64,000 nucleotides of DNA, taken from Candidatus Cloacimonadota bacterium (GTDB taxonomy: Bacteria > Cloacimonadota > Cloacimonadia > JGIOTU-2). The notes beneath the pieces are model-generated. The model searched no databases. It was not told the DNA's origin and saw only the letters and a program-made list of their open reading frames with translations. The position numbers and the translations under genes were made by a program. Below, in pieces: positions 10,942 to 64,000 of the stretch (positions are counted from its first letter, which is position 1; each line of letters starts with the position of its first letter). The stretch is taken from NCBI GenBank assembly GCA_034722995.1, contig JAYEOL010000022.1, forward strand, positions 4,859 through 68,858, in the 5' to 3' direction.

Positions 10942-11151
10942 GGATAAAATAAATAATAGGATGGATTTTTTATGAAATCAAAAGAAACAAAAGACACCTT
11001 AAGCAAATGTAGCTTCAATTCTGCGAAAAGGTATTCGCCAGCTGGCGAATCAAATGTTAATTAGAATTCATCAACAAAAGACCTTTTCGAGTTGTAAGGA
11101 GCTTGCGACGACGACTCTATGTGTTACTTTTAATGGTCCATTGTATGACAG

Positions 11152-11385
11152 TTGAAAAAATTCGTTTCACAAGAAGGAGACAAAATGGAACTAATAAAAA
11201 ATATGAATGAAAGGGTCAAAAAGCTTACTATTTTTGATATAAAACTTGTTCAAGGTGCTGCAATGTGTATTATGCTTATTATAGTTAAACTAATACCTAA
11301 AATCACTACTATTAGTATCTGGTGGTTTGTAGCATTAGCAATTCTATGTGGAATAAGACCTATGTATGTATTTTATAAAAAATAG
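11152..11385 (+). CDS. Small hypothetical membrane protein
   Basis: 77-aa ORF with a hydrophobic C-terminal half. No recognisable family. Confidence 0.35.
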   Translation: MKKFVSQEGDKMELIKNMNERVKKLTIFDIKLVQGAAMCIMLIIVKLIPKITTISIWWFVALAILCGIRPMYVFYKK

Positions 11386-48917: not shown

Positions 48918-49148
48918 ATGAAGTATGCTGATATTGCCAAAAAGTGGAAAAATTTTAACAACTGGAAGACAGCATATACATTAACCCGTATTAGCAAGAT
49001 GTCTCCTGAAGAAAGGGTAAACGAATATTTTGCCTTGATGTTGACTTTCTACAGATTACATCCTGAAGAAAAAGGCAAGATTCATTGGGATAAGATGGAA
49101 TATTACCAAAATTTACAAAAGAAATTTACATCATGCAAAAAACATTAA
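48918..49148 (+). CDS. Small partner protein of the NTase module (family member 1)
   Basis: 76 aa. Shares the [ST]PE[EQ][RK] motif with the other partners (…MSPEERVNEYFALMLTF…). Overlaps the downstream NTase gene. Confidence 0.45.
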   Translation: MKYADIAKKWKNFNNWKTAYTLTRISKMSPEERVNEYFALMLTFYRLHPEEKGKIHWDKMEYYQNLQKKFTSCKKH

Positions 49149-49687
49149 GAAAGATCATCAGCCATTTAAGTGAAAATAGGGTAGAGTATGCTGTAATTGG
49201 AGGACTTGCTAATTCTTTTTATGGTAATCCACGAGCAACACAAGACATAGACATTCTGATTAGTTGTGAGAATAACAGACAATCTTTACTCATAAGCCAA
49301 TTAGAAAGGCAATATACAATTTTACCCAAGAATCCTCTTGAATTTATCCAGCAAACAAAAGTTTTACCTATAAAGGATAAACAAACTAATGTTACAATTG
49401 ATTTAGTCTTTTCTTTGATATCCTTTGAAGATGCCGCTATAAAGAAGGCAAAAAAGATAAAGATATTTGATATTGACACAAGAATAATAACTCTGGAAAA
49501 TTTGATAATAATGAAACTTGTTTCAGATAGGATAAAGGATATTGATGATGTTAAATTTTTAGTGAAAAGCAATATGGAAAAAATTGATTGGAAATATTTA
49601 GAAACAGAAGTGGAGGAGCTCTCACTTCTTTTAGAGACTAATACAATAATGAAAAAGTTCAATGAGTTCAGAAAGGAAGGAAGATGA
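49133..49687 (+). CDS. AbiEii-like / minimal nucleotidyltransferase-fold protein (module copy 1)
   Basis: [24 protein letters not shown] fits GG.A..x..YG..R.T.DID. Its stop overlaps the metK start (ATGA). Confidence 0.6.
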
Positions 49688-50871: not shown

Positions 50872-51411
50872 ATGAATAATAATTCTGAAGTTGCTGAAAT
50901 TTATGGTGATTTGGATATTCCAAATGATGGAACAAAATGGTATGCAATTTATACCAAATCACGGCACGAAAAGAAAGTGGCAAAAAGTTGCAAAGATTAT
51001 AAAATATCATATTATTTGCCTTTGCAGGACAGTATTAGACATTATAAAAACAGAGTTGTTATTTTTAAAAAACCATTATTTTCAAGCTATATCTTTTGTA
51101 GATGTGATTCTAAATCTAAAAAAGATTTATACTATACAGGTCATATATGTAAATTCATAGAAGCATTCAATCAGAAAAAATTTATCAGCGAATTACAACA
51201 AATATATAATATAAAAGAACAAAGTGCTAATTTACTTCCACATTCTTTTCTAAAAAAAGGAAAAAGAGTTAAAATTATAAGAGGTCCTTTTAAAGATTTT
51301 GAGGGAAAAATATCACATTATAAGGGGAAATACAAATTTGTTATCAACCTTGAATTAATCAAACAAGCTGTAGCTGTTGAAATTGATACTCGGGATATCT
51401 ATTTAGTCTAA
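50872..51411 (+). CDS. UpxY-family (NusG-like) transcription antiterminator
   Basis: NGN domain WYAIYTKSRHEKKVAK...YLPL. KOW motif KGKRVKIIRGPFKDFEGKI. Confidence 0.75.
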   Translation: MNNNSEVAEIYGDLDIPNDGTKWYAIYTKSRHEKKVAKSCKDYKISYYLPLQDSIRHYKNRVVIFKKPLFSSYIFCRCDSKSKKDLYYTGHICKFIEAFNQKKFISELQQIYNIKEQSANLLPHSFLKKGKRVKIIRGPFKDFEGKISHYKGKYKFVINLELIKQAVAVEIDTRDIYLV

Positions 51412-51512
51412 ATTTTATTTAATAAATTATGTAATTTGCATAATACTAATCAGTTGCGAAAAATAAAAATTGCAACTGACGGGGACGAAGTGCGCCTACT
51501 TGAAAGGATATT

Positions 51513-52532
51513 ATGAATTTACCAAAGATTGCTGTCATCGGCTCTGGCTCATGGGGTTTTAACCATGTAAGAACTTTTTATTCATTAAAAAATTGTGAAC
51601 TTGTTTGTGTATGTGATCTAATTCCAGAAAATCTCCAAAGAGTAAAAAAGCAATTTCCAGATGTTAATACGGAAAATGACTATAAAAAGATTATTATCAG
51701 TCCTGACATAGACGCTGTGGTTGTAGCAACCAACGCAGAAACCCACTATGAAATTGCAAAGAATGCACTTATTGCGGGAAAGCACTGCTTTGTTGAAAAA
51801 CCTATCACTTTGAACATTAATGGAGCTGAAGAGTTGGTTGATTTAGCAAATCAAAATAAACTAATTTTGATGGTCGGTCATCTTCTTTTATATCATTCTG
51901 CTATTGATTATTTAAAAAATTTAGTTGATGACAAAAAAATTGGTGATGTGCTTTATATTTATTCTCAAAGAGTAAATCTCGGCAAGGTTCGTTCAACAGA
52001 AAATGCACTCTGGAGTTTTGCACCGCATGATATTTCTATTATGCTTTTTCTTATAAATGAAAAACCTGTTAGAGTTTCTGCAACGGGACAAAGTTTTTTG
52101 CAGAAAAAAGAGCAGATTTACGATGTCGTATTTTTCACTATCTATTTTGAAAATGGAGTCATAGCAACAGGACAGGTTAGCTGGCTTGACCCACATAAAA
52201 TCAGAAAATTTACTATTGTAGGAAGCAAAAAAATGGTCACTTTTGATGATATGGAAATACGGGAGAAAATCAGAATCTACGACAAAGGTGTGGATGCATC
52301 TCATGTAACTTATGATTCCTTTGCTGAATCTCTTATTCTTCACGATGGTGATATAACTATTCCGAAAATCAATCTTGGTGAACCATTAAAAAGAGAGGAC
52401 AGCCATTTTATAGATTGTATCATGAATCATGAAAAACCTTTGACTGATGGGCAGAATGGACTGGATGTGCTTAAAGTTTTGGTTGCTGCTCAAAAGTCTT
52501 TAGAAAATAATGGGCAACCGGAAAAAATTTAA
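51513..52532 (+). CDS. Gfo/Idh/MocA-family NAD-dependent oxidoreductase (WbpB-like UDP-sugar 3-dehydrogenase)
   Basis: Rossmann IAVIGSGSWG. Family features EKP and HLLLYH are present. Confidence 0.75.
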   Translation: MNLPKIAVIGSGSWGFNHVRTFYSLKNCELVCVCDLIPENLQRVKKQFPDVNTENDYKKIIISPDIDAVVVATNAETHYEIAKNALIAGKHCFVEKPITLNINGAEELVDLANQNKLILMVGHLLLYHSAIDYLKNLVDDKKIGDVLYIYSQRVNLGKVRSTENALWSFAPHDISIMLFLINEKPVRVSATGQSFLQKKEQIYDVVFFTIYFENGVIATGQVSWLDPHKIRKFTIVGSKKMVTFDDMEIREKIRIYDKGVDASHVTYDSFAESLILHDGDITIPKINLGEPLKREDSHFIDCIMNHEKPLTDGQNGLDVLKVLVAAQKSLENNGQPEKI

Positions 52533-52540
52533 AATTCAAA

Positions 52541-52693
52541 ATGAAATTCAATAAACTTCCCAAGAATGTATTAGAAAAATTTCCAGAGTTGGTAAAACTT
52601 TTAAAGAATGATAAAAACATAGTAGCTTTTTATGTATCTAATAGTGCTGAAACTGGTAACTTAAAACCTCTTAGTGATTTAGATTTTAAATAA
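52541..52693 (+). pseudogene. Degenerate minimal nucleotidyltransferase (MNT) antitoxin. The 50-aa ORF ends at a TAA, and the reading continues in frame for 22 more codons.
   Basis: IVAFYVSNSAETGNLKPLSDLDF is the G[SG]..x..SD.D motif. After the stop, ...FRDQFDKTFLEKLGYVGL resembles the MNT C-terminal helix. Confidence 0.4.
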
Positions 52694-52736
52694 TTTCGTG
52701 ACCAGTTTGATAAAACTTTTCTTGAGAAATTAGGAT

Positions 52737-53186
52737 ATGTTGGATTATAAAATAAATGATCACTTGCAAAGATTAGTTAGATGTTTCAATGGATTAAAAA
52801 ATATTAGAAAGCGCCCCAAAAGTGAGTTTTTAGTAATTGACTTTTTACAAGCAAGTAGCGAGAGATATTTAAAATTGGCAATTGAAAGCTGTATGAATAT
52901 AGGTAACTCCATTATTTTGCTTGAACAGTTTAACAAAAAAATTCCAACATCAAGGACTAATGCTGATATTTTTATAGTATTATCAAAAATTGGAGTAATT
53001 GATGAGCATTTTTCTTTTGAACTAATAAGAATGATAGAACTTTATAATCGTTTAGAGCATATTTATTGGAATATTAATAAAGAAGAAATGTATAATATTA
53101 TTCAAACAAATTTAGGAAATTTTAAGAAATTTATTGAATGTGTAATTCAATATTATAATAAAAAATATAAAGTTCATTGTGCTTAG
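52737..53186 (+). CDS. HepT/DUF86-like HEPN-domain protein (putative toxin partner of the MNT)
   Basis: 149 aa. C-terminal YNRLEHIYW resembles the DUF86 R(N)xLxHxY HEPN motif. Confidence 0.5.
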   Translation: MLDYKINDHLQRLVRCFNGLKNIRKRPKSEFLVIDFLQASSERYLKLAIESCMNIGNSIILLEQFNKKIPTSRTNADIFIVLSKIGVIDEHFSFELIRMIELYNRLEHIYWNINKEEMYNIIQTNLGNFKKFIECVIQYYNKKYKVHCA

Positions 53187-53213
53187 TAAAGTATTCAGAA
53201 AAAACGAGGAAAA

Positions 53214-53462
53214 ATGAAAGCAATAAGACAGGTTAAAGAAGTAAAAAATCACCAGGTATTGGTAAGACTACCTGAAGATTTTGGGAACAAAGAAGTTGAA
53301 GTAATTATAATACCTCTTAATGAAATAGATAAAGAAAAATTGAGTGCCAGAGATAAATTTTTGAAATTTCTATTAAGTGGACCTACTTTGAGCCCAGAAG
53401 AGATACAGAGAATAGAAGCAATGCAAAGGGAGTTTAATCAATGGCCAATAGAAAAATTTTGA
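53214..53462 (+). CDS. vapB: VapB-type antitoxin (AbrB/SpoVT-like N-terminus)
   Basis: 82 aa. Swapped-hairpin-like N-terminus (KEVKNHQVLVRLPEDF), acidic C-terminus. Overlaps the downstream PIN gene. Confidence 0.6.
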   Translation: MKAIRQVKEVKNHQVLVRLPEDFGNKEVEVIIIPLNEIDKEKLSARDKFLKFLLSGPTLSPEEIQRIEAMQREFNQWPIEKF

Positions 53463-53836
53463 TAGATACTTCCATAGTAATTGAATATGTAAGAAAGAAA
53501 AATAAGGCAAAGACTATTTTGTATGAACTCTATAAATCTTATGATGAACTTTTTATTTCTTCTATCACCGTCTTTGAAATTTTTGTTGGTGTAAATATAG
53601 AAAATGTTAATTTAATCAATCAGTTATTTGAAGGATTTAGAATTTTACCATTTGACTTAACGATTGCAAAAATCGCATCTCAAGTTTACAATGAATTAAA
53701 ATCTCAAAATAAAATAATTGAATTCAGAGATATTTTTATTGCCGCAACCGCTATTGGCAATAGTTTATCAGTAGTTACTTTAAATACTAAAGACTTTGAA
53801 AGGATTCCAAATCTGGAAATTCTAAAAAGTTTTTGA
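53441..53836 (+). CDS. vapC: PIN-domain ribonuclease toxin VapC
   Basis: ILIDTSIVIEY (first D), FIAATAI, VTLNTKDF are the PIN acidic-residue positions; 131 aa. Confidence 0.8.
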   Translation: MANRKILIDTSIVIEYVRKKNKAKTILYELYKSYDELFISSITVFEIFVGVNIENVNLINQLFEGFRILPFDLTIAKIASQVYNELKSQNKIIEFRDIFIAATAIGNSLSVVTLNTKDFERIPNLEILKSF

Positions 53837-53867
53837 TACTGCAAGAAAGGAATAGAAAGGAATAGAT

Positions 53868-55043
53868 ATGAAAATACCAATGTTAGACCTTAACGCCCAA
53901 TATGAGCCAATTAAAGATGATGTGTTAAATGCAATAAAAGAGGTTTTTGAATCCAAAAGATTTATAAACGGACCTCAAATTACAGAATTGGAAGAGAAAA
54001 TTGCAGGATATTGTCAGTGCAAATATGCAATAGGCGTTTCTTCTGGAACAGATGCAATTTTGATTTCCTTAATGGCAATGGAAATTGGACAGGGAGATGA
54101 GGTCATTACGACACCATTTACTTTTTTCGCAACAGCAGGTTGCATTTATCGTATGGGTGCAAAGCCTGTTTTTGTAGATATTGACCCCAAAACATATAAT
54201 ATAAATCCTAATCTGATTGAAGAAAAAATTACTGACAAAACAAAAGCCATCATTCCTGTTCATCTTTTTGGGCAGATAGCTGAGATGGACAAAATAAATG
54301 GGATTGCAAAAAAACATAATCTTTATGTAATTGAAGATGCTGCACAGGCTATCGGTTCAGAATATTTACCCTGTGGAATAAATATTACGCAGAATAAAAG
54401 CAATTATAATAAAAATAGTATTCCACAGGGCGAGGGTAAAAGAGCTGGTTCAATAGGTGATGTAGGCTGCTTCTCATTTTTCCCGAGCAAAAATCTCGGC
54501 TGTTGCGGTGACGGTGGAATGGTTACAACAAATAACGAAGAATTAGCAGAAAAAATAAGAGTACTCCGAGCTCATGGGAGTAAACCAAAATATTATCATA
54601 AAATTATTGGTGGTAATTTTAGACTTGATACTATTCAAGCAGCGGTTTTATTAGTTAAATTCCCATTATTAGAAAAATGGCATAAAGGTCGTCAGAAAAA
54701 TGCTCTTTACTATAATAAAAGATTGAACAATACTGTTGAAACCCCGTATGTAGAAAATTATAATAGGATGATTTATAATCAATATACGATTAGAGGTAAA
54801 AATAGAAATAGACTTCAACACCATTTAAAAGATTCCAATATTGGAAATGCGATTTACTATCCTGTTCCGCTTCACCTTCAAGAATGTTTTGCATATCTTG
54901 GGTATGAAGAAGGAGATTTACCAGAAGCAGAAAAAGCATCAAATGAAGTAATTTCAATACCAATTTATCCCGAATTGACAGATGAACAAAAGGATTATAT
55001 AATTGAAGAGGTAAAAAGAGGTATAGGGGATATAAAGGTATAA
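53868..55043 (+). CDS. DegT/DnrJ/EryC1/StrS-family PLP aminotransferase (WbpE-like) carrying an in-frame insertion of about 22 aa
   Basis: Conserved blocks either side (AIGSEY / KRAGSIGDVGCFSFFPSKNLG.GDGG). 391 aa versus about 365 aa typical. Confidence 0.85.
   Translation: MKIPMLDLNAQYEPIKDDVLNAIKEVFESKRFINGPQITELEEKIAGYCQCKYAIGVSSGTDAILISLMAMEIGQGDEVITTPFTFFATAGCIYRMGAKPVFVDIDPKTYNINPNLIEEKITDKTKAIIPVHLFGQIAEMDKINGIAKKHNLYVIEDAAQAIGSEYLPCGINITQNKSNYNKNSIPQGEGKRAGSIGDVGCFSFFPSKNLGCCGDGGMVTTNNEELAEKIRVLRAHGSKPKYYHKIIGGNFRLDTIQAAVLLVKFPLLEKWHKGRQKNALYYNKRLNNTVETPYVENYNRMIYNQYTIRGKNRNRLQHHLKDSNIGNAIYYPVPLHLQECFAYLGYEEGDLPEAEKASNEVISIPIYPELTDEQKDYIIEEVKRGIGDIKV
54369..54430 (+). repeat. 62-nt element with perfect 12-bp terminal IRs (ccctgtggaata / tattccacaggg) inserted in frame inside the DegT aminotransferase CDS
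   Basis: IRs read directly. The insertion encodes LPCGINITQNKSNYNKNSIPQG between the conserved EY and K(R)AGS blocks. Confidence 0.75.
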
Positions 55044-55111
55044 GGAAATAGGGTAGAAATTAAAGATTAAAGTGCTGAAAAGATTAAAGCAAAAAAGAGA
55101 GGAGAAACAAA

Positions 55112-55465
55112 ATGGCAATAAAAACACCAAACATTAACAATGTAACTTTAGCCGGAAACATTGTAAGAGACCCAGAAATACGAGAAGTTGGTGAGAAAAA
55201 GACGAAAGTTACTACAATTACAGTAGCAAATAACCGTCCGTATCAAGATAAAGATGGGAAATGGCAAAAGGAGACTACTTTTGTTGATGCTGAAGTATGG
55301 GGTTTACAAGCAGAAAAACTCGGTGAATACGGCAAAAAAGGCACGCCAGTTATTGTGGAAGGAAATCTAAAACTTAATAAGTGGGAAGATAAAGAAGGAA
55401 AATCGTATTCTAAATTACGGATAAGAGCCAATAGAATTCATATTCTAAATTATCCAGAGAAATAG
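55112..55465 (+). CDS. ssb: Single-stranded DNA-binding protein, OB domain only, no acidic C-terminal tail (copy 1)
   Basis: Aligns to the E. coli SSB OB fold (NNVTLAGNIVRDPEIR..., VWGLQAEKLGEYGKKGTPVIVEGNLKLNKWEDKEGK); 117 aa. Confidence 0.85.
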   Translation: MAIKTPNINNVTLAGNIVRDPEIREVGEKKTKVTTITVANNRPYQDKDGKWQKETTFVDAEVWGLQAEKLGEYGKKGTPVIVEGNLKLNKWEDKEGKSYSKLRIRANRIHILNYPEK

Positions 55466-55601
55466 TGCTCCGATTTATCGGAGTGAATCTAGATAGTTAT
55501 AAAATTTTGGAAAAAGATTAAAGTGCTTGAAAGATTAAAGATTAAAGTTCTGGAAAGATTAATGCAAAAATGAGATATGGCAAAATATGATAAAATATAA
55601 A

Positions 55602-55765
55602 TTAGGATTAGCCCCACAATTTATTGTGGGGTAAAGAAATAAAAGAATATTTTAACTGTTTCAACAGTTTACCCGCTTACAGAAAGAGTTTATGGGAAAC
55701 CGATGAATCGGTTAAGTATTTCTTTTTTTTAGGTTCCCCCTGATAAATCAGGGGGCTAATCCTAA
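55602..55765. repeat. 164-bp nested inverted-repeat element between SSB copies 1 and 2: outer 11-bp IR (ttaggattagc / gctaatcctaa) enclosing four hairpins
   Basis: Hairpins ccccacaat/attgtgggg, aactgtt/aacagtt, aaccgat/atcggtt and ccccctgat/atcaggggg, read directly. Followed by tattttgcagaacccat, a copy of the right TIR at 38590-38605. Confidence 0.55.
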
Positions 55766-55816
55766 AAATATCTATTTTGCAGAACCCATTTAATGCAAAA
55801 AAGAGAGGATAACACA

Positions 55817-56170
55817 ATGGCTATCAGAACACCAAACATTAACAATGTAACTTTAGCCGGAAACATTGTAAGAGACCCAGAAATACGAGAAGTTGGTGAG
55901 AAAAAGACGAAAGTTACTACAATTACAGTAGCAAATAACCGTCCGTATCAAGATAAAGATGGGAAATGGCAAAAAGAGACTACTTTTGTTGATGCTGAAG
56001 TATGGGGTTTACAAGCAGAAAAACTCGGTGAATATGGCAAAAAAGGCACGCCAGTTATTGTGGAAGGGAATCTAAAACTTAATAAGTGGGATGATAAAGA
56101 AGGAAAGTCTCATTCTAAATTACTGATAAGAGCGAATAGAGTTCATATTCTAAATTATTCGGAGAAATGA
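55817..56170 (+). CDS. ssb: Tail-less SSB paralog (copy 2)
   Basis: About 97% nucleotide identity to copy 1. The conserved start is the ATG at 55817 with the same AGAGAGGA RBS (the track ORF starts upstream at 55793). Confidence 0.8.
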   Translation: MAIRTPNINNVTLAGNIVRDPEIREVGEKKTKVTTITVANNRPYQDKDGKWQKETTFVDAEVWGLQAEKLGEYGKKGTPVIVEGNLKLNKWDDKEGKSHSKLLIRANRVHILNYSEK

Positions 56171-56312
56171 TAAAGTAACAAAGTGATAAAGTAAAAAGCA
56201 AAAATCAATCAGGCTTTGCAAAGCTACGCCATGACAAGAAAGGAAAAATCAGAAATTAGAAATAAAATAAACCAAATTATTGAAAATCTAATTAGAGAAT
56301 AAAAAATTTTAT

Positions 56313-56492
56313 ATGAAACGCATTGTGCATAAGTCCCATAGTTTTAAAGAAGCTGAAAAGTGGGATATCCAGCAACAGATAAACATGACCCCACAGCAGA
56401 GATTGGAATCTGCAAAAGAATTAAGCAAAAGGGTGTACGGAACAAATTTGCTGGATGTTCGAGAATATCATGAAAGAAATAAGAAAAAATAA
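56313..56492 (+). CDS. Small partner protein of the NTase module (family member 3, 59 aa; below the track cutoff)
   Basis: MKRIVHKSHSFKEAEKWDIQQQINMTPQQRLESAKELSKRVYG... shares the TPxxR motif and overlaps the NTase start. Confidence 0.4.
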   Translation: MKRIVHKSHSFKEAEKWDIQQQINMTPQQRLESAKELSKRVYGTNLLDVREYHERNKKK

Positions 56493-56961
56493 TTATTCCC
56501 CCGATGTTCTTGAACTGATGGCATTGTTATACAAAAATAAAGTAGAATACTTAATTGTTGGTGGTCAGGCTGTGATTTATTATGGACATGTTAGACTTAC
56601 AGGTGATATTGATTTTCTATACAATCAGACTGAGAAAAATGTTGATAAACTCTACATTACGCTCCTTGAATTCTGGAATAATGATATACCTGGACTTCAC
56701 GATAAAAATGAGTTGATGGAAAAGAATGTTATCTTTCAGTTTGGTGCGGTTCCAAATCGTATAGATTTGATTAGCAAAATCGAAGCAGTAAATTTCAAAG
56801 GAGCATGGCAAAAACGAGAAATCGTTAAAATTAATACTGGGAACGAAATACTAGAAGTGTATTTTATTGATGCTGAAAATTTGATAAAAAATAAAGAAAC
56901 GCTCAAAAGAGAAAAAGATCTTGATGACTTAAAATATTTAAAGCAGATTAAATTGAAATAA
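56455..56961 (+). CDS. AbiEii-like / minimal nucleotidyltransferase-fold protein (module copy 2)
   Basis: YLIVGGQAVIYYGHVRLTGDIDFL. Confidence 0.6.
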   Translation: MFENIMKEIRKNNYSPDVLELMALLYKNKVEYLIVGGQAVIYYGHVRLTGDIDFLYNQTEKNVDKLYITLLEFWNNDIPGLHDKNELMEKNVIFQFGAVPNRIDLISKIEAVNFKGAWQKREIVKINTGNEILEVYFIDAENLIKNKETLKREKDLDDLKYLKQIKLK

Positions 56962-56991
56962 TATAACGGGAAAAAAGAGAGGAGAAACAAA

Positions 56992-57339
56992 ATGGCAATA
57001 AGAACACCAAACATTAACAATGTAACTTTAGCCGGAAACATTGTAAGAGACCCAGAAATACGAGAAGTTGGTGAGAAAAAGACGAAAGTGACAACAATTA
57101 CAGTAGCAAATAACCGTCCGTATCAAGATAAAGATGGGAAATGGCAAAAAGAGACTACTTTTGTTGATGCTGAAGTATGGGGTTTACAAGCAGAAAAACT
57201 CGGTGAATATGGCAAAAAAGGCACGCCAGTTATTGTGGAAGGGAATCTAAAACTTAATAAGTGGGATGATAAAGAAGGAAAGTCTCATTCTAAATTACTG
57301 ATAAGAGCGAAAAGAGTTCATATTCTGGTCATGCCATAG
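56992..57339 (+). CDS. ssb: Tail-less SSB paralog (copy 3), with an altered 3' end
   Basis: Near-identical to copies 1 and 2, including the 25-nt upstream region. The last codons differ (…HILVMP*) because of a 16-nt indel. Confidence 0.8.
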   Translation: MAIRTPNINNVTLAGNIVRDPEIREVGEKKTKVTTITVANNRPYQDKDGKWQKETTFVDAEVWGLQAEKLGEYGKKGTPVIVEGNLKLNKWDDKEGKSHSKLLIRAKRVHILVMP

Positions 57340-57827
57340 GCATAATTCCAGAGAAGTAGCATTCCGATTTATCGGAGTGAATATAGGTAGTCATAAAATT
57401 TTATAGCTAACTCTTTCAAACAAGTATGAAATTTGAGGAGTCCCGAAAACAAATTGGGGCATCCCATTAAATAGGAAAAGATTTAACCCCAGTGAAATAG
57501 TCCCGATATACCCGTTCTCCCCGCCTTCCATCCGGATTTGTCGGGAGGACTGCGTTTCGGAGCTGGCGGGTAGATTCGGGTTTATCCCAAATCAAAATAA
57601 AATGAAGGCGTTTTCAGATGAAACATACATGTCCCCGATGTCTCGGGGACGCAAAGGAGAATGAAAATTGAATTTGTTTGCGTTACAAAGTAAAATTTTG
57701 GTAAAGAACTGGATTCCCGCGTTCGCGGTAATGACAGCTTGTTTTGACATTTGTGATTGTTAGCACCAGTTATGATTATAATGAATAAGGTGTACTTTGT
57801 GCCTTTGTGGTTAGAAAGGATTTTCAG

Positions 57828-58889
57828 ATGAAAAATTCAAAAATATTAATAACCGGAGCTGCAGGTTTTATTGGATTTCATCTATGTAAGAAATTAGTAA
57901 ACGATAACTTTTATGTTGTTGGTCTGGACAATATTAGTGATTATTACGATGTCGGCTTAAAATATGGCAGATTAGAAGAATTAGGTATTAAAACCCCGAA
58001 TATTCACTATAATGAAATCGTAAATAGTGAGAAATATAATAATTTTGATTTTATCAGATTAGATTTGAAAGAGAAGCCGAAATTGTTGAAAGTATTTGAA
58101 AAATACAATTTTGAATATGTTGTTAATTTAGCAGCTCAAGCAGGTGTCAGATATAGCATTCAAAATCCTGATGCATACTTGGAAAGTAATATTATCGGAT
58201 TCTATAATATTTTAGAATGTTGTAAAATTTATAAAATCAGACATCTCGTTTATGCAAGCAGTTCATCTGTATATGGTTTGAATGAAAAGATGCCGCTATC
58301 AACGACTGATAATGTTGACCATCCTATTAGTTTATACGCAGCAAGTAAGAAGAGCAATGAATTATTAGCACATTGTTATAGTCATCTGTATAATCTGCCA
58401 ACTACAGGTTTGAGATTTTTTACAGTGTATGGTCCCTGGGGAAGGCCTGATATGGCATATTTTCTATTTACAAAGAGGATTTTGGAAGACAAACCGATTA
58501 ATGTTTATAATTATGGCAAAATGGAAAGGGATTTTACTTATATTGATGATGTAGTTGAAGGTGTTAAACGAGTCATCACAAGTATTCCGAAGCCGGACCA
58601 AAATTGGAGTGGGGAAAAACCAAATCCAGGAACATCAAAAGCACCATTCAAGATATACAATATTGGGAATAATGCACCAGTAAAATTAATGGACTTTATT
58701 GAGGAGATTGAAAAAAAACTGAATAAAAAAGCTAAGAAGAATATGATGCCTTTACAATCTGGTGATATTCCAAAGACGCATGCAGATGTTAGTAATTTAG
58801 TAAAGGAAGTAAATTATCACCCAAATACTTCATTTAAAAAAGGGATTTCAAATTTCATTGATTGGTATCTGGATTTTTACGATAAGTAA
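57828..58889 (+). CDS. NAD-dependent nucleotide-sugar epimerase (UDP-glucuronate 4-epimerase-like)
   Basis: GAAGFIGFHL, YASSSSVYG, catalytic YAASKK; AAGGA RBS before the ATG at 57828. Confidence 0.85.
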   Translation: MKNSKILITGAAGFIGFHLCKKLVNDNFYVVGLDNISDYYDVGLKYGRLEELGIKTPNIHYNEIVNSEKYNNFDFIRLDLKEKPKLLKVFEKYNFEYVVNLAAQAGVRYSIQNPDAYLESNIIGFYNILECCKIYKIRHLVYASSSSVYGLNEKMPLSTTDNVDHPISLYAASKKSNELLAHCYSHLYNLPTTGLRFFTVYGPWGRPDMAYFLFTKRILEDKPINVYNYGKMERDFTYIDDVVEGVKRVITSIPKPDQNWSGEKPNPGTSKAPFKIYNIGNNAPVKLMDFIEEIEKKLNKKAKKNMMPLQSGDIPKTHADVSNLVKEVNYHPNTSFKKGISNFIDWYLDFYDK

Positions 58890-58899
58890 AAAAGATTAT

Positions 58900-59006
58900 C
58901 CATCCTCCGTCCCGAAAAAAGTCGGGACTGCGCCTGTCCACCGTAATATCCGTTCTCCATAGCAGTGCTACTGCGAAGGATGAACTATGGAAGGCGGGGA
59001 GGATGG
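58900..59006. repeat. Nested IR element: outer ccatcctcc / ggaggatgg enclosing hairpin gtcccgaaaaaagtcgggac and a ctccatag[cagtgctactg]…ctatggaag stem
   Basis: Read directly. The core ccgttctccatagcagtgctactgcgaaggatgaa recurs in the opposite orientation at 46385-46419. Confidence 0.55.
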
Positions 59007-59103
59007 GAAGAGCAAAGATTAAAGACCAAAGCAATCCGTCTTCGTCCCGATAAAAGATTCGGGACTACGCCGAGACTGAAGAAAAAGCAATGAATAATGA
59101 ACA

Positions 59104-59289
59104 ATGAACAAAGAAAAAGGAACTATAGAAAGAAAATATACCCCAGAACAAAAACTCATTGCATTTATGAGCTTATATAATGCGGCTCGCGAATTGAAAT
59201 TTGCTGCGCTGAAACATAAACATCCCGAATTGTCTGACGAAGAAATAGAAAAAGAAGTAATAAAGATTTTCAAATATGCAACTTCCTGA
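59104..59289 (+). CDS. Small partner protein of the NTase module (family member 2)
   Basis: 61 aa, ...YTPEQKLIAFMSLYNAAREL...; overlaps the downstream NTase gene. Confidence 0.45.
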   Translation: MNKEKGTIERKYTPEQKLIAFMSLYNAARELKFAALKHKHPELSDEEIEKEVIKIFKYATS

Positions 59290-59848
59290 CATTATTACAC
59301 TTTTCATAAAACCCCTCAATGAAAATGACTTACATTATGTAATCACAGGCTCTATTGCATCATTAATATATGGAGAAATCAGAGTTACTCACGATATAGA
59401 TTTATTATTAAATATTTCAGAGAATCAAGTGGCAGATTTTCTCAATGCCTATAGTTCAAAAGATTTTTATAAACCTCCTGTCGAAGTTGTGACCATCGAA
59501 TTTTCACGAACAGAACATGGTCACATTAATTTAATTCATAATGCAACAGGATTTAAGGCAGATGTATATTTTTGCGGCAGAGATAAATTAAATTTGTGGG
59601 CTTTGAGGAATTTCAAAAGAATTGAATTTAAAAACGGCTATTTGAAAGTCGCCCCTATTGAGTATGTAATTATAAAAAAACTTATGTATTATAGAGAATC
59701 AAATATGGAAAAACATGTTTTGGATATTATTGGAATGTTGAAGAAATCTTCTAAAGAGATAGATAATGAGATATTTGAGAATTTGATAGAGGAATATTCC
59801 TTACAAAAGGAATGGAATCATATAAAAAATCAATTAACCATATTATAG
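59276..59848 (+). CDS. AbiEii-like / minimal nucleotidyltransferase-fold protein (module copy 3)
   Basis: YVITGSIASLIYGEIRVTHDIDLL. Confidence 0.6.
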   Translation: MQLPDIITLFIKPLNENDLHYVITGSIASLIYGEIRVTHDIDLLLNISENQVADFLNAYSSKDFYKPPVEVVTIEFSRTEHGHINLIHNATGFKADVYFCGRDKLNLWALRNFKRIEFKNGYLKVAPIEYVIIKKLMYYRESNMEKHVLDIIGMLKKSSKEIDNEIFENLIEEYSLQKEWNHIKNQLTIL

Positions 59849-60189
59849 TGAAAATAATAACCGAGCCCACTTCTCTCAATGAACTTTGGGGTAACCGCAA
59901 AGTCAAATTCGAGGATATGATGAAGATAGTGGTTGATGTCGGGCGGGAAATAGTTGCAGCAGATGCTGAACTTCATGCTGATTTGGAAGCTCTGCTGTTA
60001 GAAAATGGCTCCCGGCAATATGATATCTGGGGCATCAATATCTATTCTGATAAAAACGAAGATGATTATATTGAATATACTGCACTTATCAATATCAAAC
60101 CATCTCAAGATAATCGAAGTATGGAAGTTGAAGATCCTCAAACCCGACATAAAATTCGTGAAATTTGTGCGAGGTTACTGAAAAGATAA
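59812..60189 (+). CDS. Hypothetical protein. The true start may be the internal ATGATG at about 59912.
   Basis: ORF only; no recognisable family. Overlaps the next ORF. Confidence 0.35.
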   Translation: MESYKKSINHIIVKIITEPTSLNELWGNRKVKFEDMMKIVVDVGREIVAADAELHADLEALLLENGSRQYDIWGINIYSDKNEDDYIEYTALINIKPSQDNRSMEVEDPQTRHKIREICARLLKR

Positions 60190-60518
60190 TGCTTCATACT
60201 CACCTCACTTTAGAAAAATGGAGATCCTTCAGCCCTGATAAGCAGATTCTTATGATTGCAAATGAGATTAATAGAGCAAAGAACTGGATAGAAAAGAAGG
60301 ATTTTGAGAAGGTTTCAAATTGCTATGAGCGTGCCTTTGAGCTTATTGATTTCACTGTTGATGGTTCTAAAGATAAAAGTTTTATAAGGGAGTTGCTGAG
60401 ATTCCGGGAAATTTTGGCAATAAATTATAGTAAAAATACGCAAAGTTATCCGAATTATACTTTATACAACTTACTCTTAAGTATGAATGTTGTTTCGTAT
60501 AATTTATTGAGAGGGTAG
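60165..60518 (+). CDS. Hypothetical protein carrying the partner-family motif (…SPDKQILMIANEINRAK…)
   Basis: The [ST]P[DE]..[ILV]..[IF].....R motif is shared with the small partner proteins at 48918, 56313, 59104 and 61407. Confidence 0.35.
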   Translation: MCEVTEKIMLHTHLTLEKWRSFSPDKQILMIANEINRAKNWIEKKDFEKVSNCYERAFELIDFTVDGSKDKSFIRELLRFREILAINYSKNTQSYPNYTLYNLLLSMNVVSYNLLRG

Positions 60519-60710
60519 TGAATCGCAAAGCGTGAAAAGTGGAGTAAATTTACTCCTACTCAACAAATATTAATGATAGGGAATGATTATAAAATTAAAA
60601 CTAAAAAATCAAAGAAAAAATAAAAAGAGTAAAGACTAAAGACCAAAGTAACACAATCCATGCCAAAGGCAGACAGGCGTCTCGATTGTGAAGATTAAAG
60701 ATTAAAGATA

Positions 60711-60852
60711 AGTAGCACGGATCCCCGCGTCCGCGGGGACTGTTCCGTAAAAGACCAAAAATTATCCACCTTCACTATAGTTACGGAGGACAAGAAGGTA
60801 AACGGAAAGTAGCACGGATCCCCCCGTCCGCTGGGACTGTTTCGTAAAAGAT
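60711..60852. repeat. Two 45-nt direct repeats (agtagcacggatcccc[g/c]cgtccgc[g/t]gggactgtt[c/t]cgtaaaaga) with a 97-nt period
   Basis: Read directly. Each contains a ccccgcg-tc-cgcgggg hairpin. The sequence between them has a homolog at 62100-62140. Confidence 0.55.
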
Positions 60853-60871
60853 TAAAGAAAAAAAATTAAGA

Positions 60872-61426
60872 ATGAAAAATGAATTTGATATATTGTTTGA
60901 TATAATTAATAGATTTAATGAAATAAATATTCCTTATATGCTTACTGGCTCATTAGCTATGAACTATTATGCTGAACCACGAATGACAAGGGATATTGAT
61001 TTTATCATTGTGTTGCAACCAAAAATGAAAATTGGTCTAATCCAAAAATTTAAGGATGATTATTATATTTCAGAAAAAGCTTTCAGCGAAGCAATAAAAT
61101 ATAATTCAATGTTTAATATTATTCATAAACAATCTGTTATTAAAGCTGATTTGATTATTAGGAAAAATTCGGAATATAGAGAAAATGAGTTTAAAAGAAG
61201 AAAAAAAGTAATAATTCAAGGTCATTCAATATATATTGTTTCAAAGGAAGATTTGATAATTTCTAAGATATTTTGGTCCAGAGAATCTAAATCAGAAATA
61301 CAAAAAAGAGATATTATAAACCTGCTTAATGATAATTATGATAAAAATTACTTAATAGAGTGGTTAAAAAAGATTGAATTATATAATTTTGCAAAGGAGT
61401 TTGTCGGTGAAAGATACTTCAGATAA
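60872..61426 (+). CDS. AbiEii-like / minimal nucleotidyltransferase-fold protein (module copy 4)
   Basis: YMLTGSLAMNYYAEPRMTRDIDFI. Confidence 0.6.
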   Translation: MKNEFDILFDIINRFNEINIPYMLTGSLAMNYYAEPRMTRDIDFIIVLQPKMKIGLIQKFKDDYYISEKAFSEAIKYNSMFNIIHKQSVIKADLIIRKNSEYRENEFKRRKKVIIQGHSIYIVSKEDLIISKIFWSRESKSEIQKRDIINLLNDNYDKNYLIEWLKKIELYNFAKEFVGERYFR

Positions 61427-61697
61427 GATTAATAAAATATATCATAAAATGTTGATGAAAAAATCAGGGGAAGAACGATTCCTTATGGGAATAAGTTTAT
61501 GTGAAACTGCCAGAAAAATGGTTTTGGCTTCCTTTCCTGATAATATCAATGAAGATGAAAAACATGTGAAATTATTGATTAGATATTATAAAAATGAATT
61601 TTCAACAAATGAAATGAATAAAATTGTTGATAATATTAAAACAACCCAGTTCACCCTGTTAAATCCCTTCGGGATCCCGATATATCGGGATATTTAA
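61407..61697 (+). CDS. Partner-family small protein downstream of NTase copy 4 (GTG start with AAGGAG RBS)
   Basis: …KKSGEERFLMGISLCETARKM… shares the partner motif. Gene order is inverted relative to the other copies. Confidence 0.4.
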   Translation: MKDTSDKINKIYHKMLMKKSGEERFLMGISLCETARKMVLASFPDNINEDEKHVKLLIRYYKNEFSTNEMNKIVDNIKTTQFTLLNPFGIPIYRDI

Positions 61698-61865
61698 CAG
61701 GGTGAAATAAAAGAAGCATAAGATTTCACCCCGATGAAATAACAAAAAAAAGATTTCATCCCAGTGAAACAAAAAAGATGGTTTCACAGGATAAATTGGG
61801 CAGGCGGGTCAAGAAAAGTAAAAAGCAATCCGTCTACGCTACACCGAGACTGGCAACTAAAAAGC

Positions 61866-61904
61866 AATGAATAATGAATAATGAATAATGAATAATGAAT
61901 AATG
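61866..61904. repeat. Heptanucleotide tandem repeat (aatgaat) x5.6
   Basis: Read directly. A degenerate copy (aatgaataatgaacaatgaacaa) lies at 59088-59110. Confidence 0.7.
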
Positions 61905-62339
61905 TAGAATGGGATAAAGTAAAAAGGGATAAAGTAAAAAAATAAAATGAAAATTGATAAAAATATTAAAGATAATCCTTTATTATACAAAACTTTTCTT
62001 TTGGCACTTGAGATAATAAAATTATAAAAATATCTTACAAAAGAGAAGAAAGAATATATAATGTCCAAATAGTTAAAGACAAGATTAAAGACTAAAGACC
62101 ATCCACCTTCGTTATGACTACGGTGAACAAGAAGATTAAAGATTAAGGCAAAAGCAGAAAGAGTAAAGGTAAAGGAGTAAAGATTAAAGGTAAACCTGCT
62201 CCGCAAATGCTTCGTACTTGTCTTACGAAGTTCTCTGGATGGAGAACGAAGTATGAGGTCAAGAAGAAAAAGCAGACAAATAATCCGTCTGAGGCGTCCT
62301 AAAATAAGTTGACTCAAAAGAATGAAATGAGAAGCAAAT

Positions 62340-63695
62340 ATGCGATATAATATTTCACAGGGTGAATCGGAAACCGTTGAGTTTAAAGAATCTCTGGGAG
62401 AATGGAAAGAAATTATTAATACTATCAGTGCATTTAGTAATACAAATGGTGGAGTAATTTTGGTTGGTATAAATGATTGTGGGGGAATAAGTGGGGTTAT
62501 TACTGGTAAAAGTACTTTAGAGGACTTAACTAATAAAATCAATGAGAATACAGACCCCAAAATTTACCCTCATATAACCACGAAATTAATAGATGGAAAA
62601 TCCATAGTTATCATTGAGATAAAAGAATCTTTTGACCATTTAGTGGTGGCTTTTGGCAGACCTTATAAGAGAGTTGGTAAATCTACCGTAAGAATGTCAA
62701 AAGACGAATACGAAAGCCTGATTTTAGAAAAGCATAAAGAGAAATTATATTTTGATTCTCAAATATGCAAAGAAGCCAGCTTAGGCGATATCGATAATAT
62801 TAAAGTAAAAAGATTTATAGAAAGAGCGAATTTTGAAAGGAGATTAGAGATAAATCCGAATATAACACCAAAAGAGGCTTTAAAAAAATTAAGCCTTGTA
62901 AAAAAAGATAAATTAGCTAATGCTGCAATTTTATTGTTCGGCAAGAATCCTCAGAAATTCTTTTTACAGGCAGAGACAAGATGTGCTCGTTTTAAAGGGA
63001 CTGAACCTTTAGAATTTATCGATATGAAGGTCTTTGGAGGAAATATAATTGATCAAAGAGAAGATGCCTTAGAATTTGTTAAGGAACATATTCAACTTCA
63101 CGCAGAAATTAAAGGAACAGAAAGGATAGAGAGATGGGAATATCCTATTGAAGCTATAAGAGAGGCGATTACTAACGCAATCTGTCACCGTAATTATAAA
63201 ATTTCCAGTAATGCCCAGATTAGAATTTTTGATGATAGAATCGAAGTTTGGGGTTGTGGTCCTCTACCAGAACCATTAACAGTGGAGGATTTAAGGAAAA
63301 AACATGATTCGGTCTTAAGAAACCCACTAATTGGGAAATGTTTCTTTTTAATTAAATATATTGAACAATGGGGAACGGGAACCAATAGAATGATTAAAAA
63401 ATGTCTAAGTTCTGGTTTGCCTGAACCTTTATTTGAAGAAATTTCCGGGAATCTCGTGGTTACATTTAGAGGGAAAATTACTAAGGAATATTTAGAGGGT
63501 TTGGATTTAAATAAGAGGCAAATTGTAGCTATGGAGTATATTAAAAAAATCGGAAAAATTACAAACAAAAAATATAGAGAAATGTTTCCAGAAATATCCA
63601 ATGAAACAGCAAGGCTTGATTTAAATATACTGGTTAGAAAGAGGTTATTGAATAAAAAAGGTGAAAAGAGGGGTGCGTACTATACTATCAGATAA
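62340..63695 (+). CDS. AlbA_2 (Schlafen-like) DNA-binding domain plus RecG-C/HATPase_c_4-type domain protein ('ATP-dependent DNA helicase RecG-related' regulator)
   Basis: N-terminal ESETVEFKESL...FSNTNGGVILVGI (AlbA_2). C-terminal wHTH region; 451 aa. Confidence 0.65.
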   Translation: MRYNISQGESETVEFKESLGEWKEIINTISAFSNTNGGVILVGINDCGGISGVITGKSTLEDLTNKINENTDPKIYPHITTKLIDGKSIVIIEIKESFDHLVVAFGRPYKRVGKSTVRMSKDEYESLILEKHKEKLYFDSQICKEASLGDIDNIKVKRFIERANFERRLEINPNITPKEALKKLSLVKKDKLANAAILLFGKNPQKFFLQAETRCARFKGTEPLEFIDMKVFGGNIIDQREDALEFVKEHIQLHAEIKGTERIERWEYPIEAIREAITNAICHRNYKISSNAQIRIFDDRIEVWGCGPLPEPLTVEDLRKKHDSVLRNPLIGKCFFLIKYIEQWGTGTNRMIKKCLSSGLPEPLFEEISGNLVVTFRGKITKEYLEGLDLNKRQIVAMEYIKKIGKITNKKYREMFPEISNETARLDLNILVRKRLLNKKGEKRGAYYTIR

Positions 63696-63703
63696 CAGAT
63701 AAT

Positions 63704-63904
63704 ATGAATATCCCAAATTTATCCCAAAATTATCCCAAATTATTTGAAATGATTCATTATTTAAAAATTGGAATATTAATTAATAGAGTGAAAAAGAAAG
63801 AAATTGAGCCGTTGTTAGATATTGATGATATCGCTATTGAGACTGGAATTTCTGATCTTGCTGAAAATTACGATTACTATTTATATGGAGTCCAAAAAAA
63901 GTGA
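63704..63904 (+). CDS. Small hypothetical protein, possible antitoxin; its stop overlaps the downstream PIN start
   Basis: 66-aa ORF; acidic C-terminus. Confidence 0.3.
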   Translation: MNIPNLSQNYPKLFEMIHYLKIGILINRVKKKEIEPLLDIDDIAIETGISDLAENYDYYLYGVQKK

Positions 63905-63990
63905 ATAAACTTGTATTTATTGATACTTTTGCTTGGATTGCAATTTTAAATAAAAGTGATACTTACCATACTGTGTTACTTATGATTTGA
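63901..63990 (+). pseudogene. N-terminal fragment of a PIN-domain (VapC-like) gene, truncated after 29 codons
   Basis: GTG start; KLVFIDTFAWIAILNKSD is a typical PIN N-terminus with the first Asp. In-frame TGA at 63988. Confidence 0.4.
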
Positions 63991-64000
63991 AACATTTAAT

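Follow-up and report, generated by a model that had tools for sequence, protein, structure and literature searches.

A Triplicated Tail-Less SSB Gene in a Polysaccharide Locus

The DNA considered here, referred to below as the window, is a 64,000-nucleotide stretch from a Candidatus Cloacimonadota bacterium (contig JAYEOL010000022.1 of assembly GCA_034722995.1), in which three similar genes for a short single-stranded DNA-binding protein (SSB) are interleaved with a structured repeat and a putative toxin-antitoxin (TA) cassette (Table 1). The three proteins are deposited as MEA3475392.1, MEA3475393.1 and MEA3475396.1, on one 73.6-kb contig of a Candidatus Cloacimonadota metagenome-assembled genome (MAG). 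An original prediction made from the letters alone had described three SSB open reading frames (ORFs) about 97% alike, and the pairwise identities, 95.8-98.5% over the first 333 nt, bear this out. The longer ORF annotated for copy 2 begins at an upstream ATG (55793) that is a non-homologous start, the true one being at 55817. All three genes belong to the bacterial SSB family: the Pfam SSB model PF00436 matches every copy (E ~6e-27, 94 bits against a cut-off of 26) and the NCBI ssb model TIGR00621 matches copy 1 with 106.6 bits (cut-off 53.95). The AlphaFold2 model of the short SSB is a plain OB fold (pLDDT 85.6) with its strands and helix in the SSB order, and the top 50 PDB matches returned by Foldseek are all SSBs (bacterial OB domains, TM 0.8-0.9), with the whole protein covered. 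The chains stop 4-6 residues past the last OB strand and leave no C-terminal remainder in the superposition. As had been predicted, chain ends, model and structural matches agree on proteins made of the OB fold only, with neither a disordered linker nor the acidic ...D(D/E)IPF tip of canonical SSBs. The positions with which Escherichia coli SSB stacks on single-stranded DNA (ssDNA), W40, W54, F60 and W88, align to Y44, F57, W63 and W91, and Y44, W63 and W91 are invariant across the family of short SSBs described below.

The similarity extends beyond the coding sequence. A strong ribosome-binding site (RBS) precedes each copy, and the leader of about 25 nt reported as common to all three is exact in copies 1 and 3 (AAAAAAGAGAGGAGAAACAAA-ATG), whereas copy 2 carries three mismatches. 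Likewise, the downstream hairpin attributed to every copy, CTCCGATTTATCGGAG, is found after copies 1 and 3 only (55468-55483 and 57362-57377), copy 2 diverging at its stop codon. The altered end of copy 3 had been ascribed to a 16-nt indel; the altered end stands, and the alignment shows a 14-nt gap plus substitutions, leading to an early stop (...HILVMP*) behind which the ancestral 3' end and hairpin are still legible. This variant C-terminus (VMP or AMP) is kept in the third copy of relatives. The repeat element, the small-protein plus nucleotidyltransferase (NTase) module and the polysaccharide surroundings were all recovered. The last of these comprise an UpxY antiterminator (110.5 bits, cut-off 100), a GFO/IDH/MocA dehydrogenase, a DegT aminotransferase and an NAD-epimerase; the array is placed between the aminotransferase and the epimerase, and not in an rpsF-ssb-rpsR operon.

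Table 1. Elements of the SSB array, in window coordinates
Feature	Coordinates	Strand	Description
Sigma-70-type consensus TTGACA-17-TATAAT	54975..55003	+	12/12 matches, within the 3' end of the DegT gene
Leader of SSB copy 1	55059..55111	+	AGATTAAAG repeats, AAAGTGCT motif, RBS GAGAGGAG
SSB copy 1	55112..55465	+	117 aa, OB fold only, ends ...HILNYPEK; 100% identity to MEA3475392.1
Post-SSB unit of copy 1	55466..55508	+	Hairpin CTCCGATTTATCGGAG, then TAGATAGTTATAAAATTTT (55490-55508)
Orphan duplicate of the SSB leader	55509..55582	+	Three AGATTAAAG repeats and AAAGTGCT
Structured inverted-repeat element, ~210 bp	55583..55795	+	Terminal inverted repeats, four internal hairpins, one of them terminator-like
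SSB copy 2	55817..56170	+	117 aa, ends ...NYSEK; hybrid copy
59-aa ORF, putative antitoxin	56313..56492	+	Overlaps the NTase start; no Pfam match
DUF6036-family NTase, 168 aa	56455..56961	+	PF19502, E 6.4e-9, 36.3 bits (cut-off 23.6)
Leader and RBS of SSB copy 3	56971..56991	+	Empty site for the inverted-repeat element
SSB copy 3	56992..57339	+	115 aa, variant end ...HILVMP from a small insertion
Relic 3' end after copy 3	57340..57402	+	CCAGAGAAGTAG, hairpin 57362-57377, TAGGTAGTCATAAAATTTT site
Stub, 5' end of an AbiE-type cassette	57403..57449	+	Includes ATGAAATTTGAGGAG, the first five antitoxin codons

A Conserved Three-Copy Block

The array belongs to a syntenic block conserved in related genomes (loci and contigs are cited here by L numbers, proteins by P numbers). 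In these relatives metK is followed by UpxY, (TA), the dehydrogenase, (TA), DegT and the first SSB gene, and the order continues with [AbiEi-like + AbiEii], SSB, [59 aa + DUF6036], SSB (115 aa), the epimerase and DUF5674. The same three-copy block is present in at least five independent assemblies (JGI 3300031651, 3300031553, 3300031586 and 3300032029, plus GCA_964398885.1). The alternation of three SSB genes with two cassettes is seen in L001-L004, on the partial contigs L005-L007 and, as a variant with two SSB copies and a truncated third, in L012. Short-read MAG assemblies often break at repeats, and contigs of CSMAG_2405 end in the SSB gene (L024, L031, L032), as could be expected if a single gene had been mis-assembled as three. 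However, flanks and substitutions are specific to each copy, the same arrangement is met again in the four JGI samples and in GCA_964398885.1, and the copies of relatives differ by up to 15%. These features together exclude mis-assembly to our satisfaction, and such an artefact is given next to no credence.

The Short SSB Family of Cloacimonadota

An exhaustive profile search covering 1.84 billion representatives returned only 13 proteins at E <= 1e-30, several of which are two-OB proteins outside the family; all weaker matches show generic SSB similarity. When a broader profile of the family was used in a word-indexed search, about 57 clusters of 113-134 aa scored at least 161 bits, and the next matches reached 122 bits or less. 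Every named member comes from Cloacimonadota, Cloacimonas or Tenebribacter and, among the GTDB species representatives, 18 of the 21 loci found are from Cloacimonadota. Members end in HIL(N/E)YP(E/Q)K or, in a marine clade, in VLEHEKK(KEEKF). In a neighbour-joining (NJ) tree, which has no usable bootstrap, the short Cloacimonadota SSBs form a long-stemmed clade of their own, and Bacillus subtilis SsbB pairs with SsbA. The tree gives no sister group for the short family, and an origin from the canonical ssb of the phylum is not claimed. P0033, considered as a member and provided with a short acidic tail, groups with the tailed SSBs in the same tree and thus supplies no evidence of a transitional form. 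Judged from these comparisons, the short SSBs are a distinct family that is restricted to Cloacimonadota and inherited vertically. No paper describing the family, its locus association or the alternation of SSB genes with cassettes was found in the literature searched; tail-less second SSBs and the concerted evolution of tandem paralogs are already known. Many of the top profile matches outside the family (P0021, P0023, P0024 and others, 230-290 aa) are SSBs with two OB folds, whose C-termini are basic or short and have no DIPF tip.

Most genomes contain one copy of the short gene, in or beside an UpxY-type polysaccharide locus, and the family keeps its chromosomal position across 62-100% identity. 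In L018-L020 and L023, the single gene stands before GT2, LPG-synthase ... YbeY, CorC, at the edge of the polysaccharide locus; in L010 and L027, it lies directly upstream of a nucleotide-sugar dehydrogenase; and in Cloacimonas (L033-L037), it is the first gene of a block encoding SSB, PHP, GIY-YIG, epimerase and epimerase. In CSMAG_2405, CAYWJN and CAYUTH there are signs of multiple copies: the gene is cut by a contig end, or two contigs carry one copy each. The PHP-domain gene of Cloacimonas begins 46 nt after the short SSB gene (L033-L037, ~10392-11216), and the best NCBIfam matches of its product, all below threshold, are to 3',5'-nucleoside bisphosphate phosphatase and RNase RNM. From this arrangement, the two genes may form an SSB-nuclease/phosphatase operon.

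Residence in polysaccharide loci raises the question of whether tyrosine phosphorylation could connect the short SSB to the polysaccharide machinery, B. subtilis offering the precedent. In that organism PtkA, a capsule-type bacterial tyrosine kinase (BY-kinase), phosphorylates and activates SsbA and SsbB (YwpH); both are reported as its substrates, as is the UDP-glucose dehydrogenase Ugd (PMC4304235). The position of the short gene immediately before a nucleotide-sugar dehydrogenase in L010 and L027 would fit such a tie. Nevertheless, no BY-kinase occurs among the window ORFs scanned, and the PHP neighbour in Cloacimonas resembles the phosphatase and RNase mentioned above, no match to a model of the capsule-type tyrosine phosphatases (CpsB/YwqE) being reported. 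Moreover, the position equivalent to the phosphosite, which we take to be Tyr82, is the invariant Trp91 in the alignment of short SSBs. A link of this kind is considered very unlikely.

Tail-less SSBs are common on mobile elements, and the array had been suspected of being a remnant of one, that is, of a phage, plasmid or integrative element with a tail-less SSB of its own. An IS110 element directly upstream of copy 1 in L004 and the transposon-like element in the leader of window copy 2 would be in line with this origin. On the other side, the best phage and plasmid matches in INPHARED and PLSDB have 39-41% identity, which is generic SSB similarity, and IMG/VR yields a single match, at 39%. 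The window ORFs sampled, which take in most of those from 35.6 kb onward, encode metabolic, type IX secretion system (T9SS)-cargo, polysaccharide and TA proteins together with a Schlafen/AlbA-HATPase protein, and include no integrase, phage or conjugation genes. Given also the conserved synteny and the restriction of the family to Cloacimonadota at a stable position, the suspicion is not sustained and a mobile remnant appears highly improbable.

A Separate Canonical SSB

The canonical SSBs of Cloacimonadota have 138-152 aa, a short linker and the tip EDDIPF, KDEIPF or DDEIPF. Their operon reads ispE-prs-rplY-pth-rpsF-ssb-rpsR-DUF2232-rplI-x-DciA, and the gene was located within rpsF-ssb-rpsR in L039, L040, L042-L044, L052 and L053. 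One of these proteins, P0303 (MEA3475856.1), to which the short SSB is 38% identical, shares its accession series with the window proteins MEA3475392, MEA3475393 and MEA3475396 and very probably derives from the same MAG, judging by this numbering. The two types also come together in one project with the short P0204 (MEA2103663.1) and the canonical P0326 (MEA2103389.1), in the whole-genome shotgun project AGBJ01, which yields one of each, and in metagenome 3300028883, where each type lies on long contigs. The tailed gene that the original prediction had proposed to look for elsewhere is present in the phylum and, by accession numbering, very probably in the same MAG. Of the two-part condition by which that prediction would have been refuted, membership of a conserved syntenic block holds, but the array genes are not the sole SSB genes, and the accessory ssDNA-handling role suggested at the outset gains support from this separate canonical SSB.

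These data bear directly on the idea that the array is an amplified housekeeping gene and that the phylum replicates with a tail-less SSB. Conservation of the short gene across the phylum at a stable chromosomal position could be read in this way, but tailed SSBs occupy the rpsF-ssb-rpsR operon of many MAGs, three genomes or projects show both types, and metagenome 3300028883 holds the two on long contigs, all of which renders the idea exceedingly improbable. In L039 (2214-4502) and L041 (1-591), a Wzz-GNVR-AAA_31 gene of BY-kinase type stands a few genes upstream of the canonical ssb operon, and in L039 this gene comes after an SLBB-domain gene; in this phylum, therefore, both SSB types neighbour polysaccharide genes.

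Age and Homogenisation of the Copies

All copies are under purifying selection, dN/dS being 0.06-0.21 in every comparison, which together with the strong RBS of each points to functional genes. In relatives, the copies of one array are only 85-94% alike, and copy 2 of L002 is just 85-87% identical to any other copy. Window copy 2, in contrast, agrees with window copy 3 at 40 of 41 informative sites (98.5% overall) and is devoid of the divergent sequence of the L002-type copy 2. Its flanks are hybrid as well: the 5' side (inverted-repeat element and leader) resembles L002 copy 3, and the 3' side resembles L002 copy 2 followed by the DUF6036 cassette. In L004, an 11-site tract of copy 1 (nt 129-180) is identical to copy 3 (permutation p = 0.0003).

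Because the VMP/AMP end is shared by third copies and L012 has a truncated third copy, the three-copy layout is older than the split of the window from L002, L004 and L012. As this layout is shared with relatives whose copies are 85-94% alike, the near-identity seen in the window points to homogenisation rather than youth, and on the sequence comparisons gene conversion is its source. The recent duplication envisaged in the original prediction is thereby set aside, since both the layout and the odd C-terminus of copy 3 are common to relatives with more divergent copies. The recombination hot spot proposed alongside it is upheld by the gene-conversion tracts, the hybrid copy 2 and the strain-variable cassettes.

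Turnover of the NTase Cassettes

The DUF6036 protein is the putative toxin of an AbiE/MenT-like module, with the 59-aa ORF as its candidate antitoxin, and the same pair stands 3' of an SSB gene in L004, L005, L007, L012, L025 and L028. None of the PADLOC models of defence systems fits the SSB, the 59-aa ORF or the DUF6036 protein, and at most a weak AbiEii match is given for one neighbouring protein. A second cassette, of AbiE type, lies between copies 1 and 2 in L002, L004 and L012, where it starts at the position equivalent to the post-SSB unit, and is absent from the window. There, the interval between copies 1 and 2 reads as an empty site, in which the hairpin and TAGATAGTTATAAAATTTT are followed by the post-cassette leader of the relatives. 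The orphan leader equals the end of the relatives' AbiE cassette plus the copy 2 leader, the cassette itself being missing, and 55484-55547 of the window matches L002 9861-9927. After copy 3, about 40-50 nt of the cassette persist as a stub, beyond which the deletion extends to the pre-epimerase spacer; 57384-57449 matches L002 8255-8320 at 92%. The absent cassette and the stub together indicate that 'SSB + downstream cassette' modules have been permuted and partly deleted relative to L002.

The edges of the AbiE cassette in L012 are TATAAAATTTT and TATCAAATTTT, and the post-SSB site TAGATAGTTATAAAATTTT is found after SSB genes only, in all the DNA examined. The junction between this site and the cassette is a 22-bp near-palindrome, TAGTTATAAAATTTTATAGCTA (window 57384-57413; L012 2439-2470; L002 8255-8285), readable as 11-6-11 with arms matching at 9/11, like a recombinase core; the other end of the cassette is not palindromic. 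A Xer/dif-like reading was discarded: just one half-site pair is palindromic (9/11), and site-specific recombination is consequently not supported. As for an integron, there is no integrase among the scanned window ORFs and the junctions show no common attC-like site, no dedicated attC model having been run. The cassettes of the locus differ between close relatives at every intergenic slot, and at least one cassette is joined seamlessly to the start codon of the gene that follows; in L002 a cassette extends into the next biosynthetic gene and alters the region of its start codon. Such variability and seamless fusion argue for homology-facilitated or illegitimate insertion, selected for operon compatibility, rather than for a site-specific system.

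Almost all intergenic slots of the UpxY-controlled polysaccharide operon are occupied by a co-oriented TA pair (window 50872-64000; L001/L002, L008, L010, L021, L028). The occupants are MNT/HEPN, VapBC-PIN, Rv0078B-like + NTase and DUF5674 pairs, AbiE, HicA-like and DUF4258/DUF2283.

The TA pair directly 3' of a short SSB gene always has an NTase fold (AbiEii, DUF6036 or MNT). The SSB might thus be the third component of NTase TA modules, composed of SSB, a small antitoxin and an AbiEii, DUF6036 or MNT protein, in which it would act, for example, as an ssDNA sensor or toxin modulator; the array would then consist of three such systems, two of them decayed. In agreement with this possibility, an NTase-fold pair accompanies the SSB in every direct SSB-TA context (window copy 2, copies 1 and 2 of L002 and of L012, and L016, L017, L021/L022, L025, L026 and L028), and the 59-aa + DUF6036 pair follows the SSB even in relatives that are 62-66% identical (L025, L028). 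However, many single-copy members have no adjoining TA pair (L010, L027, L018-L020, L023 and L033-L037 of Cloacimonas), while NTase pairs are the commonest cassette type throughout the loci and mostly stand without an SSB. In the window, copies 1 and 3 have stayed intact and under purifying selection although neither has a partner cassette, and the lack of any PADLOC model for the three proteins adds to these objections. Since NTase cassettes dominate and many SSBs lack them, the three-gene system is treated as an alternative, and an unlikely one.

The Inverted-Repeat Element and the SSB Leader as a Possible Target

The inverted-repeat (IR) element interrupts the leader of copy 2. Its core is delimited by perfect 12-bp terminal inverted repeats (TIRs), AGGATTAGCCCC and GGGGCTAATCCT, which span 55604-55765; the 72-nt arms cover 55602-55673 and 55694-55765, with a DNA fold z of -6.7. 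It stands between imperfect direct repeats, GCAAAAA(A/T)GAGA, that overlap the repeated leader. A version 97% identical to it occupies the copy 3 leader in L002 and L004, and the sites are reciprocal, the copy 2 leader being filled in the window and the copy 3 leader in L002, with the other sites empty. In 526 kb of Cloacimonadota DNA examined the element occurs once per locus. A multi-copy miniature inverted-repeat transposable element (MITE) was considered and rejected: a TIR scan of JGI metagenomes found only two known contigs (L048, L050), its remaining matches being unrelated DNA of 64% GC. Being single-copy, the element is called MITE-like and not a proven MITE.

In L004, an IS110-family transposase gene (27-1250, - strand) lies directly upstream of SSB copy 1 and replaces its leader up to the RBS, at the same position that the IR element takes before other copies; the transposase gene is upstream in L003 too. 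The SSB leader looks like a preferred insertion target.

An unrelated organism of high GC content (L046, L047, L049 with two copies, and L051; JGI Ga0116162 contigs, 64% GC) has multi-copy elements of about 170 bp whose ends are exactly the same 12-bp pair, AGGATTAGCCCC...GGGGCTAATCCT; apart from the TIRs, these elements share no sequence with that of the window.

A Probable Partner-Blind Accessory SSB as the Repeat Unit of an Array

Taken together, these results make it probable that the short SSB is an accessory, partner-blind protein that coats ssDNA and is SsbB-like in function, and that its gene now serves as the repeated element of an array that recombines within a TA cassette hot spot. 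The short SSB would form the usual SSB oligomer and coat ssDNA, and would be unable to recruit the partner proteins of SSB, whereas the housekeeping role would be taken by the separate canonical ssb of the rpsF-ssb-rpsR operon. In the lineage of the window, the SSB gene would have turned into a repeated unit of leader, ORF and hairpin (~440 bp) alternating with NTase-type TA cassettes. Homologous recombination between SSB units is the route by which copies would be homogenised through gene conversion and hybrids generated, and it would also permit the gain, loss and re-ordering of cassettes. Copy number and near-identity would both be products of unequal recombination and gene conversion, and the copies may serve a dosage or accessory role.

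Several points weigh against this interpretation. Binding of ssDNA, the oligomeric state and the consequence of the missing tail are predicted by homology, and the conserved HIL(N/E)YP(E/Q)K end may represent a novel motif for interactions, in which case the notion of a partner-blind protein would be weakened. The assignment of a canonical ssb to the same MAG stands on accession numbering and not on a sequence read. The AbiE cassette is bounded by an 11-bp direct repeat, TAT[A/C]AAATTTT, and not by an SSB-SSB crossover, so not all of the turnover is mediated by the SSB repeats. Frequent direct adjacency of SSB and NTase TA genes may mean a functional link and not mere co-residence in a hot spot. 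Finally, the interpretation offers no biological reason for the tie to polysaccharide loci.

A different role for the repeats was also contemplated, in which the SSB unit (leader, ORF, hairpin and TAGATAGTTATAAAATTTT site) serves as a portable landing pad or homology arm of an integrase-free array of NTase TA cassettes. Cassettes would enter beside an SSB unit that is duplicated with them, and SSB-SSB recombination would shuffle, excise or transfer 'SSB + cassette' modules between strains. The bracketing of n cassettes by n+1 SSB units, the permuted module order between the window and L002, the filled and empty sites with the 11-bp repeat at the 22-bp near-palindrome, and the targeting of the leader by IS110 and the IR element are all consistent with it. 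In a stronger form, the tail-less SSB may bind ssDNA or hairpin intermediates of cassette movement, or act together with the NTase toxins. We hold this landing-pad scheme to be speculative and rather unlikely.

Comparison with Known Systems and Significance

Most known cases of a tail-less second SSB come from competent Firmicutes or from mobile elements. The closest functional parallel of the accessory SSB proposed here is the SsbB of Firmicutes, in particular that of B. subtilis (YwpH, 113 aa; PDB 3VDY), likewise a second chromosomal SSB beside the canonical one of rpsF-ssb-rpsR. Both consist of the OB fold alone, the B. subtilis type likewise lacking a long linker and an acidic tip, and by analogy each should coat ssDNA but not recruit the SSB interactome. 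Among the sequence and fold matches of the short SSB are 3VDY and structures of Staphylococcus aureus SsbB. The short Cloacimonadota SSBs differ in forming a clade of their own outside the Firmicutes SsbB lineage in the NJ tree (which has no usable bootstrap), in having no competence genes among their annotated neighbours, and in residing in polysaccharide/TA loci and in multi-copy arrays. To our knowledge, neither such arrays nor such a location have been known for SsbB. With canonical bacterial SSBs (E. coli type; P0222, P0303), they share the Pfam/TIGR family, the OB fold and the aromatic positions that stack on ssDNA, and they depart from them in the lack of linker and D(D/E)IPF tip, in their location outside rpsF-ssb-rpsR and in their multiple copies.

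For the architecture of the array, known systems for comparison are the orphan-cassette arrays of Rhs/CdiA toxin-immunity loci and tandem families under concerted evolution. As in Rhs/CdiA arrays, a conserved repeat alternates with variable cargo of toxin/immunity type, and recombination between repeats homogenises, reshuffles and deletes. In the SSB array, however, the repeat is a complete, selected and unrelated gene, not a toxin fragment, and there is no displacement of toxin tips. The cassettes themselves resemble AbiE/MenAT modules, in which a small upstream ORF overlaps the gene of an AbiEii/DUF6036/DUF2204 NTase-fold protein; they differ in that the scores of the window module are modest and its 59-aa partner has no family match, the toxin-antitoxin role being putative.

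The analysis defines a phylum-wide family of tail-less SSBs in Cloacimonadota, which are mostly uncultured and abundant in anaerobic digesters, and raises the question of what a partner-blind SSB does in a polysaccharide locus. The array provides a natural example of concerted evolution in a small gene of essential type, and shows how a repeated gene can organise the turnover of TA cassettes inside an operon. Two cautions for annotation also follow: in these MAGs, the name 'single-stranded DNA-binding protein' is given to two proteins that differ in function, and the SSB repeats may cause breaks in contigs.

Leaders, Hairpins and Other Features of the Window

The sigma-70 consensus at 54975-55003 sits about 108 nt upstream of SSB copy 1 and is, from its sequence, a possible promoter for the array. 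In Rfam, searched over 50-64 kb at a permissive threshold, the sole match is a chance one to a microRNA-like family, so no known RNA family accounts for the IR element or the hairpins. Hairpins of the form CCGA-N(3-8)-TCGG number 14 in the window against 0.66 expected, half of them within 55-62 kb (55470, 55700, 57364, 57635, 58912, 59047 and 61677 among the sites), and the post-SSB hairpin falls in this class, which resembles repetitive extragenic palindromes. In L002, the hairpin of copy 3 shows a compensatory change (TCCGAC/GTCGGA).

The 9-mer AGATTAAAG occurs 14 times in the window (1.9 expected). Twelve of the 14 lie in + orientation between 55064 and 62189, within the intergenic leaders that belong to the SSB/TA cassette zone, and often in 7-8-nt tandem (including 55064, 55081, 55515, 55532, 55539, 59016, 60692, 60699, 60849, 62082, 62133 and 62181), and the motif also fills leaders in L002, L008 and L012. 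A spacing of 7-8 nt places TAA in all three frames, and the repeats may act as a translational insulator or leader element.

At the far end of the cassette zone lies the gene of a 451-aa Schlafen AlbA_2 + HATPase_c_4 protein (62340-63695, + strand), which has no NCBIfam match. Outside the polysaccharide operon, between ahcY and metK, there is an NTase-like ORF of 184 aa (49133-49687, + strand), labelled by similarity to the NTases of the locus only.

A AAAGTGCT(CAT) motif is present about 40 nt (35-45) before the SSB start across the family (L010, L018-L029; window 55075-55082 and 55526-55533). It is kept where the remaining leader has diverged, is preceded by TATAAA in the distant clade, and could serve as a promoter, mark the start of transcription or have a regulatory role.

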